Positions 7,950 through 9,130 of a DNA stretch of 15,631 nt are shown one piece after another. Source of the stretch: a virus. Where the stretch lies: IMG/VR virus record IMGVR_UViG_3300027825_000082; one strand, given 5' to 3'. Below the pieces are notes generated by a model. That model did not search any database and was not told the DNA's origin. It was given only the letters and a program-made list of their open reading frames with translations. Position numbers and translations under genes: made by a program. The stretch's first letter is position 1, and each line of letters starts with the position of its first letter.

Positions 7950-8136
7950 TGGTGTCCGCCTTGATCTGCGCGGTGACCGCGTCCAGGATGTTCGGCATCC
8001 TGACGGAGATGACCTTGCCCTTGGGCAGGGTGAGCCCCCCGACGACGATGCCCTCGGCGACGGCCTTCTCGACGTTCGAGTCCGTCGTGACCTTCCCGTT
8101 GTCGCCGAACAGCTCAACCTTGATTCTTATCTGCAT
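7939..8136 (-). CDS. hypothetical protein (65 aa)
   Basis: Internal ATG (MQIRIKVELFGDNGK...) preceded by AGGAGAACAGGAAAA. Confidence 0.6.
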   Translation of the reverse strand: MQIRIKVELFGDNGKVTTDSNVEKAVAEGIVVGGLTLPKGKVISVRMPNILDAVTAQIKADTNAD

Positions 8137-9130
8137 TTTTCCTGTTCTCCTCGTGCATCCTGATCGCCATGTCCAGTATCTCACGGTTGACGTGGTCCTG
8201 GCTGGCCCACTCGTTGGCCTGCCCCGCGACGGGGTTCAGCGCCGCCTGCTGGCTGATCCACCAGGTCGCGATCTGGAAGGCCTTCGCCATGACCTTCATC
8301 GGCTCGTTCTGCCAGCCCCAGTGCTCGACCTGCGCGGCGGTGATGACCCGGCTGATCCTGGCGCGGTCCACCTCGGGCGGCAGCTTGGAGGCCGCCTGCG
8401 CGGCTTCGAGCTCCGCAGTCAGGTCCGCGTACATTTTCTCCACGCCCTCAAGCGAGTAGCCCCCCGCCCTGATGCCCTTCAGCGTCACCACCTCTGGGCG
8501 CGGCAGCGTGATCGTCCCGCGCTTCATCAGCTCGATGCCCTCGCACAGCACGCGGATGAGGTGCATGGCGGCCTTGGTGTCGTAGCCGTGCTCGTGCTCC
8601 AGCTCCGGGCGCTGCCCGTGCTTGCCCTGGCCCTCGCCCTTGATGCGCTTGAGCATGGACTCGGAGAACCGCAGGAAGTGGAAGCCCGCCCTGGAGGAGA
8701 TGAACGCGTCCCTGTTCGGCTCGACGTGCTTCACCCAGATGTCCGGCTTGGGGGCGCTGTTCTCGATGAACAGGAACTCCAGCGCCGTCGTGTTGCCCGT
8801 CGCCGCCATGCCCGCCCACTTGCGGAGGGAGTAGAGGTTCAGGTCGATGTCGCCGGGGCCGTTCTTGTCGTGGTCGCCAGAGGGGCTCCACACCTGCACG
8901 TCCGGGTCGAAGTACTTCTTCGTCCCGTCCGCCTCCACCATCTGCTGCGGGATGCCCAGGACCAGCTCCACGGGCTGGATGTACACGCCGCACAGGTCTA
9001 TGTCCGTGGGCTTGTCGCCCGTCGCGCCGTGCATCCCCGACCCGCCGATGAACAGGTGGATCATGGAGTCCGGCCACATGAACGGCGTCTGCCGCACGAG
9101 CTCTACGAGTTGTTCCTTAGTAGCTTGCAT
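8114..9130 (-). CDS. Pol-beta-superfamily nucleotidyltransferase (338 aa)
   Basis: hGS-x11-DxD motif FIGGSGMHGATGDKPTDIDL, and a further DIDL pair about 60 aa later, then a helical C-terminal region (a KNTase-like two-domain layout); internal ATG start, track N-terminus is artefactual. Confidence 0.6.
   Translation of the reverse strand: MQATKEQLVELVRQTPFMWPDSMIHLFIGGSGMHGATGDKPTDIDLCGVYIQPVELVLGIPQQMVEADGTKKYFDPDVQVWSPSGDHDKNGPGDIDLNLYSLRKWAGMAATGNTTALEFLFIENSAPKPDIWVKHVEPNRDAFISSRAGFHFLRFSESMLKRIKGEGQGKHGQRPELEHEHGYDTKAAMHLIRVLCEGIELMKRGTITLPRPEVVTLKGIRAGGYSLEGVEKMYADLTAELEAAQAASKLPPEVDRARISRVITAAQVEHWGWQNEPMKVMAKAFQIATWWISQQAALNPVAGQANEWASQDHVNREILDMAIRMHEENRKNADKNQG

Follow-up and report, generated by a model that had tools for sequence, protein, structure and literature searches.

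An RlaP-family nucleotidyltransferase in the tRNA island of a metagenomic phage: a candidate tRNA repair enzyme

Introduction

What does a nucleotidyltransferase do in the midst of phage tRNA genes? The question is raised by the IMG/VR virus record IMGVR_UViG_3300027825_000082, a stretch of 15,631 nucleotides (15.6 kb, about 65% GC; hereafter, the window), in which the minus strand carries all of the tRNA genes as well as every gene judged credible. One open reading frame (ORF) of this record, at 8114..9130, had been described in a sequence-only reading as a Pol-beta-type nucleotidyltransferase (NTase) with a KNTase-like two-domain layout, and tailing, repair or CCA-type addition of RNA, synthesis of a nucleotide signal, or action on a host factor had been listed as its possible functions. 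Here, we assign the protein to the RlaP family and weigh what it may do.

As related in two later articles (PMC12776372, PMC7824862), RlaP, or 'RNA-ligase-associating Pol-beta', was defined by Burroughs & Aravind in 2016 from its linkage to RNA ligase genes, and was predicted to restore nucleotides lost at damaged RNA ends ahead of ligation. In jumbo phages it is the most prevalent NTase of this kind, and it tracks RNA ligases (PMC7824862).

Family membership and catalytic residues

The flagged ORF starts with an ATG at 9130, ends with a TGA at 8116..8114 and encodes a protein of 338 aa. The ORF list also holds a longer reading with a GTG start at 9271; the ATG is the start chosen by an independent gene call in a 97%-identical contig (L001; L-numbers denote the loci of relatives, which were fetched from ENA, JGI and IMG/VR), and it is the start indicated by the N-termini of homologues. 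The GC content at the three codon positions is 0.68/0.46/0.84, as in a genuine high-GC coding frame, and the copies of the gene in the window and in L001 differ in 14 codons synonymously and in 9 non-synonymously, with no change at an invariant position. To judge from the sequence, both features fit a functional gene.

The sole Pfam match of the protein was PF10127, 'RlaP, RNA repair pathway DNA polymerase beta family' (65.1 bits versus a gathering cutoff of 23, E 1e-17, residues 4-219), which is listed in the Pfam NTase clan (PMC10400998), and the sole PHROG match was phrog_388, 'nucleotidyltransferase' (E 4.3e-43). A search of 5.8 billion proteins gave 757 homologues; nearly all of the 120 listed were metagenomic, and all of these 120 carried PF10127 as their precomputed Pfam label. 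The NCBIfam search with the protein returned no family, and the sequence search of the PDB, with the single protein as well as with a 46-sequence profile, returned nothing meaningful (a spurious nucleoprotein at E 0.59).

The peptide GGSGMHGATGDKPTDIDL (residues 29-46, nt 9046..8993 on the minus strand) contains G30-S31, followed after eleven residues by D43-I-D45. In an alignment of 46 homologues with 45-97% identity, G30, S31, H34, D43, D45 and D96 were invariant. Thus, the GS-x11-DxD motif, which the sequence-only reading had taken for the Pol-beta NTase signature, is not a chance match. D94 was conserved in at least 90% of the same homologues, and K104, W105, N113, R174, D184, K186, H190, R193 and E197 of the helical half were invariant as well. 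When the profile of the 46 homologues was compared by hhalign with NrdC.11 of phage T4, which has been assigned to RlaP cluster 5 (PMC12776372), the two were aligned over 202 columns with a probability of 95.9% (E 5.6e-9), and the GS, DxD, third-Asp/YSL and GxDxKAxxHxxR motifs were paired. By these comparisons, the window protein is a member of the RlaP family with a complete Pol-beta catalytic set, and a homologue of T4 NrdC.11. Its score is well above the Pfam threshold, its GS/DxD/D residues and its C-terminal motif of the GxDxKAxxHxxR type can be aligned with NrdC.11, and, like many members of the family, it is phage-borne.

Its phage relatives are distant. In translated searches 569 phage records were matched, all at no more than 36% identity. 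Mycobacteriophages made up the majority, phages of Gordonia, Klebsiella, Escherichia and Bacillus came next, and several of the genomes were of jumbo size. The matching genes are annotated as 'nucleotidyltransferase' or 'NrdC-like'; mycobacteriophage Aziz gp54, annotated as a nucleotidyltransferase, is 36% identical to the window protein. Together with Spud gp3 and Bacillus phage G gp218 it belongs to the same PHROG, with 24-36% identity over 70-90% of the length and the same predicted fold (target-normalised TM-scores 0.4-0.78). Several phages carrying genes of the phrog_388 type presumably encode many tRNAs. A megablast search with the 4 kb around RlaP against 50,697 phage records gave no relative at the DNA level, and the phage lineage of the window is known from metagenomes only. 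What sets the window protein apart within the RlaP family, besides this low identity to known phage members, is an additional helical C-terminal extension of 64 residues. The nearest cellular homologues, at 40-50% identity, all belong to Acidobacteriota (Terriglobia, Granulicella), which suggests that the host of the phage is probably found in this phylum.

Predicted structure

The AlphaFold2 model built from the homologue alignment (mean predicted local distance difference test score (pLDDT) 88.2, predicted TM-score 0.76) was assigned by DSSP a short N-terminal helix, a strand at 23-29, a helix at 31-34, strands at 44-50 and 95-101, and only helices from 102 to 335, as expected from the sequence-only reading, which had placed a helical domain after the catalytic one. 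In the model, a helix begins at G30-S31, D43 and D45 go with strand 44-50, and D96 is on strand 95-101, with a small variable beta insert in between. The catalytic residues of the model thus sit on a strand-helix-strand unit and a later strand, as expected of Pol-beta NTases; lack of this fold, which would have spoken against the assignment, was not seen. The extension is modelled as helices 276-298 and 311-335 with pLDDT of about 80-89. It is present only in a subset of homologues and is missing from the majority, which have 265-290 aa; many homologue matches span just 75-81% of the query.

The best matches among solved structures were ANT(3'')(9), AAD(9), ANT(4')/KNTase, GlnE, DrrA and Hailong HalB, and the C-terminal half was matched by HEPN domains. 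KNTase and GlnE had been named beforehand among the families to be sought with HHpred or Foldseek, and the two-domain layout proposed for the protein is borne out by the model and by its matches to ANT/KNTase, GlnE and HalB. Among the predicted viral structures of BFVD, many NTases of phages and giant viruses were matched (E down to 7e-14, target-normalised TM-score up to 0.78). The model matches two-domain NTases, and its predicted order of domains, NTase and then helical, is the one described for the crystal structure of PfRlaP. The best Foldseek match in the PDB was HalB (9dbh; E 9e-4, target-normalised TM-score 0.42-0.46), an NTase of the Hailong defence system that synthesises oligodeoxyadenylate and that, like the window protein as we interpret it, is a small template-independent NTase. 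The two differ in that their identity is only 14-16%, that the window gene has neither a HalA-like partner nor a PADLOC match, and that it is encoded by a phage and is not a host defence gene.

We also considered an RNase activity of the HEPN-like helical domain, and rejected it because the sole Rx4-6H string of that domain is not conserved. An MNT-HEPN toxin-antitoxin pair, defined by a minimal NTase and an HEPN RNase with a conserved Rx4-6H, was likewise rejected, as this combination was not found.

Family biochemistry and genomic context

The chemistry of the family has been described for two Pseudomonas enzymes, PfRlaP and PaRlaP (Carruthers, Fatma & Huang, bioRxiv Dec 2025, PMC12776372). 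These enzymes use RNA, and neither DNA nor protein, as a substrate; they add one or two nucleoside monophosphates to an RNA 3'-OH, a 3'-phosphate blocks them, they accept all four nucleoside triphosphates (NTPs) and dATP with little NTP specificity, and they work far better with Mn2+ and Co2+ than with Mg2+ (PMC12776372). They favour the 5' half of a tRNA mimic cleaved in the manner of colicin E5, whereas the acceptor 3' end of a tRNA mimic in annealed form is less favoured, and pre-treatment with RlaP rescues the aminoacylation of a religated tRNA that has lost one nucleotide of the anticodon loop (PMC12776372). They labelled full-length tRNAs in total E. coli RNA, and the cellular RNAs to which they add nucleotides are many and include rRNA (PMC12776372). 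The crystal structure of PfRlaP shows an NTase domain and a helical domain with a charged cleft, and its gene lies between rtcB and rtcA (PMC12776372). The authors propose that RlaP is an antidote to ribotoxins that cut RNA and then trim it, such as RloC and PaOrf2 (PMC12776372).

By analogy with these enzymes, we infer that the window protein acts on RNA 3' ends without a template. Of the functions listed in the sequence-only reading, tailing or repair of tRNA or other RNA was retained, as it is what membership in PF10127 points to, and CCA-type addition, a nucleotide signal and action on a host factor fell away; the last, if the factor is a protein, is disfavoured by the finding that the Pseudomonas enzymes did not label proteins (PMC12776372).

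The genomic context of the gene suggests that its targets are tRNAs and that its role is in counter-defence. The 3' CCA is encoded in all 16 tRNA genes of the array downstream of it (Table 1), 14 of which were also called by Rfam (a 79-nt tRNA-His was missed). The Rfam scan of the window gave tRNAs only; a small RNA of another kind that could be a dedicated substrate, such as a Y RNA or a tmRNA, was not found. In all relatives whose RlaP is at least 40% identical (L001, L003-L008 and L091-L096; GC 51-65%), the gene is part of a tRNA island: over the whole range of 97% to 40% identity it is flanked by a Ser/Leu tRNA block and, 1.5-6 kb downstream, by a Trp-His-Arg-Asn-Gln-Lys block. The position in so deeply conserved an island fits a tRNA-directed role. 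Accessory genes for translation and RNA repair, dispersed over the tRNA islands of the related loci, include a 155-aa histidyl-tRNA synthetase (HisRS) fragment, the peptidyl-tRNA hydrolase PTH2, a PNKP-type HAD fragment and the RNA 2'-phosphotransferase Tpt1/KptA (L003 16523..16990; L005 3250..3516 and 6308..6541; L008 19105..19650). Known targets of anticodon nucleases are tRNA-Arg for colicin D, tRNA-His and tRNA-Asn for colicin E5, tRNA-Lys for PrrC, and tRNA-Gln and tRNA-Lys for gamma-toxin/PaT. We take the isotypes of the window array to overlap these targets; since the window holds only part of the tRNA set of the phage, we claim no enrichment.

Proposed role in tRNA repair

We favour the explanation, with a probability of roughly 0.7, that the gene encodes an active RlaP-type RNA 3'-nucleotidyltransferase, which patches trimmed tRNA ends during infection before they are religated by a ligase encoded elsewhere. 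Host ribotoxins would both cut and trim tRNAs, either those of the host or those that the phage brings. RlaP would then restore the trimmed ends, its preferred substrate being the 5' fragment that is left when a tRNA is cut in the anticodon loop. An RNA ligase whose gene lies elsewhere, in the phage or in the host genome, could reseal some of the patched molecules into working tRNA. Accordingly worded, the annotation 'nucleotidyltransferase' could be sharpened, by analogy, to 'RlaP-type RNA 3'-nucleotidyltransferase, probable tRNA repair'. The RlaP family comprises more than 10,000 sequences, and its chemistry was described in 2025; the window protein adds to it one divergent member known from metagenomes only. 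RlaP together with the 16-tRNA array would mark a phage lineage heavily invested in sustaining translation against tRNA-directed defences of its host.

Several points weigh against this role. No RNA ligase, Pnkp, RtcA or RtcB was found in the window or within 10 kb of RlaP in its closest relatives, so that the partner implied by the name of the family is not seen in the clade of the window, unlike in the case of PfRlaP with its rtcB and rtcA neighbours. In tblastn searches of all fetched loci, E. coli RtcB and RtcA and T4 Pnkp and Rnl2 had no matches, and T4 Rnl1 matched only L097, L098, L137 and L138. L097 and L098 represent a sister clade (RlaP 38-40% identity) that has no tRNA array and in which, 2.6-4.5 kb downstream of RlaP, there is a T4 Rnl1-type RNA ligase (PF09511, E 1e-13 to 1e-14). 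The neighbourhood of an RNA ligase is a tendency of the family and not a requirement. The position in the tRNA island, in turn, may reflect inherited gene order in one phage lineage and not function. The characterised enzymes are Pseudomonas proteins, to which the window protein is likened by family and by description, and the 64-residue extension fits no established role. As to the Pseudomonas enzymes themselves, their authors regard the in-vivo pathway as unproven, and the 3'-OH product is incompatible with RtcB (PMC12776372).

The cellular homologues do not speak for RNA repair either. In the five Acidobacteriota loci whose flanking ORFs were scanned there were no RNA-repair neighbours, and the products of the ORFs were of the kind of amino-acid permease, aminotransferase, transposase and fumarase; an RNA-repair operon context for these homologues was therefore dropped. 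In three Granulicella loci (L065, L077 and L079) RlaP directly follows a conserved ORF of about 630 aa, which in the scanned L065 and L077 is an amino-acid permease. These homologues hint at the phylum of the host and add nothing on function.

Alternative explanations

The presence of RlaP in a tRNA island with no ligase in view raises the question of whether it could function without a dedicated ligase. It could do so as a stand-alone mender of tRNA 3' ends, which would re-extend CCA ends nibbled by host toxins or exonucleases and thereby keep the large tRNA set of the phage chargeable. This would agree with the lack of a ligase near RlaP in the clade of the window, with the retention of the gene within the tRNA island across deep divergence, and with the labelling of full-length tRNAs in total E. 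coli RNA by the Pseudomonas enzymes. However, an enzyme with little NTP specificity that adds one or two nucleotides could not faithfully rebuild C-C-A, and the acceptor 3' end was the less favoured one in the annealed tRNA mimic. The absence of a ligase over 15-20 kb, moreover, says little, as the genome is probably much larger (related contigs have about 100-460 kb). The CCA-adding enzymes and poly(A) polymerases, considered as candidates in their own right, were rejected: the protein matched no Pfam family of the PolyA_pol or NTP_transf_2 kind at E <=1, none was among the PDB fold matches, and the tRNAs of the array already encode their CCA. We hold ligase-independent mending to be unlikely, although it is the main rival of the favoured explanation.

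Another explanation starts from the gene for a homologue of MVP, the major vault protein, upstream of RlaP. The MVP homologue, the SPFH lipoprotein and/or small membrane ORFs, and RlaP might form a vault-like, membrane-associated assembly that shelters or services tRNAs while the phage infects its host, with RlaP as its cargo or docked to it; if true, viruses of prokaryotes would have a counterpart to the 'RNA vault' of eukaryotes. The vaults of eukaryotes are ribonucleoprotein particles, and the order of an MVP-like gene, one to three small ORFs and RlaP, on one strand and with overlaps or short spacers, recurs in the window and L001, in L003 and L004, and in L005-L007 and L091. In addition, no promoter-like site and no coding-strand terminator-like site was found between the MVP-like gene and RlaP; the scan of 7000-13500 as a whole gave nothing above chance. 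Against this, it is only in the clade of the window (RlaP at least 59% identical) that the MVP-like gene lies directly upstream of RlaP, which weakens the coupling and led us to drop it as the main explanation. Outside this clade, the two genes are about 190 kb apart on one 454-kb contig (L008 and L144), L145 and L146 carry an MVP-like gene with no RlaP nearby, and L092-L098 carry RlaP with no MVP-like gene within 10 kb. Nor is the form of RlaP, with or without the C-terminal extension, correlated with MVP adjacency. Such an assembly appears to us quite improbable.

Still less probable, by a little, is an offensive role, in which RlaP would add stray nucleotides to the 3' ends of host tRNA or rRNA and so disable host translation, as MenT does, while the phage relies on tRNAs of its own. 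The arguments for it are general ones: many cellular RNAs, full-length tRNA and rRNA among them, receive untemplated nucleotides from enzymes of the family, and the phage has a large tRNA set. The phage tRNAs, however, share the CCA end and would be equally exposed, the protein shows no relation to MenT/AbiEii by Pfam or PADLOC, and the cellular homologues occur as single genes on the chromosome, beside which the loci examined showed no antitoxin-like partner.

The least probable of all is that the protein makes or mimics a nucleotide signal, as CD-NTases or HalB do, or modifies a small molecule or antibiotic, as ANT/KNTase do, two readings taken jointly that the fold-level resemblance of the model brings up and that the searches did not bear out. 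As for CD-NTases (CBASS cyclases), there was no SMODS Pfam match, PADLOC matched the window NTase with no defence-system model, the Foldseek probability to CdnC, CdnD and cGAS was at most 0.2, and no effector-like neighbour was present, which does not support the nucleotide signal suggested earlier. For an aminoglycoside NTase, we would have looked to family-level or strong structural similarity together with a resistance context, and this combination was not found.

Neighbouring genes and other features

The coordinates of the RlaP gene, its parts and its neighbours are collected in Table 1.

Table 1. Features of the RlaP gene and its surroundings, in positions of the window
Feature	Position	Strand	Basis or remark
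RlaP-family (PF10127) nucleotidyltransferase gene, 338 aa	8114..9130	-	Translation, Pfam, phrog_388, homologues, L001 gene call
Catalytic signature GGSGMHGATGDKPTDIDL, residues 29-46; G30-S31 begin a short helix, D43-x-D45 on the next strand	8993..9046	-	Sequence, alignment, model
D96 codon, predicted third catalytic carboxylate, motif GDIDLNLYSL	8843..8845	-	Invariance; strand 95-101; aligns with T4 NrdC.11 DNIDHELYSL (hhalign)
N-terminal Pol-beta NTase domain, about residues 1-125	8756..9130	-	
Helical KNTase-C/HEPN-like domain, about residues 129-274; invariant R174, D184, K186, H190, R193, E197	8309..8746	-	
Lineage-specific C-terminal extension, about residues 275-338, predicted two helices	8117..8308	-	Alignment and model
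86-aa hydrophobic ORF, overlaps RlaP start by 28 nt	9103..9363	-	ORF list; called identically in L001; L003/L004 have a counterpart at 35% identity
SPFH/Band-7 protein, N-terminal signal resembling a lipoprotein signal (LMTAC)	9596..10399	-	Pfam E 1e-17; phrog_200 'lipoprotein'
813-aa MVP homologue	10478..12919	-	ORF extends to 12991 with a TTG start
HNH endonuclease	5824..6426	-	With small ORFs between RlaP and the tRNA array
HNH endonuclease inside the tRNA array	704..1267	-	
16 tRNA genes: Trp, His x2, Gly, Arg x6, Asn x3, Gln x2, Lys x2	20..3019	-	ARAGORN; 5.1 kb downstream of RlaP

More unusual than RlaP are three other components of the locus: the MVP homologue, the SPFH lipoprotein, and the tRNAs with a long variable arm. 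The MVP-like protein was matched in Pfam by MVP_shoulder (E 1.6e-25) and Vault_3 (E 1.9e-9), and in phmmer by rat and human MVP (E 1.5e-17, MVP residues 477-740), a match that we read from the sequence as running from MVP repeat nine through the shoulder into the first part of the cap helix. It has 4,376 metagenomic relatives at E <=1e-5, and those whose contexts were examined appear to lie mostly on large phage contigs. Phage MVPs have so far been reported in one 2023 preprint, for two gut phages and with no analysis of their context. Only the window and L001 have the Band-7 gene. Between it and RlaP, the 86-aa ORF is possibly coupled to RlaP in translation; a second small ORF is also found upstream of RlaP in the window.

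On the 454-kb contig that also carries L008, the genes beside the MVP-like gene (L144, 11474..17163) encode a PP2C phosphatase, a UvrD helicase, a NUDIX protein and NAMPT/NAPRTase. The last two resemble a phage NAD+ salvage pair.

Three tRNAs of the window array, tRNA-Arg(CCU) at 317..401, tRNA-Gln(CUG) at 1474..1560 and tRNA-Asn(GUU) at 1641..1726 (all on the minus strand), are 85-87 nt long. The minimum free energy (MFE) folds of the long tRNA-Asn and tRNA-Arg are cloverleaves whose variable region has an additional 3-bp stem capped by a tetraloop, which would be a class-II-like arm although both isotypes normally belong to class I. The MFE fold of the long tRNA-Gln is not a clean cloverleaf, and this gene was not called by Rfam. 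For Asn and Gln, twins of normal length are present within the same array. The long forms recur in L003, L005-L007, L091, L092, L095 and L096, and are thus conserved across diverged relatives and not artefacts. In addition, ARAGORN called tRNA-like genes with a two-base 'anticodon' (tRNA-???) at about 14515..14651 of L005-L007 and L091 and at 17085..17152 of L096, where their place within the arrays is conserved; they may be degenerate or non-canonical tRNAs.

The phage contigs L005-L007 carry a gene for a 437-aa amino-acid permease at 18034..19410, about 7 kb from RlaP. A permease near RlaP both in these contigs and in Granulicella may be a trace of gene capture from host to phage.

Finally, about 1.2 kb of the window, at approximately 6490..7740 (ORFs 6622..7101 and 7216..7733), is absent from the otherwise near-identical L001, and ORF 7216..7733 is partly matched in L003. 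The two HNH genes and the segment missing from L001 fit a mosaicism driven by homing endonucleases.

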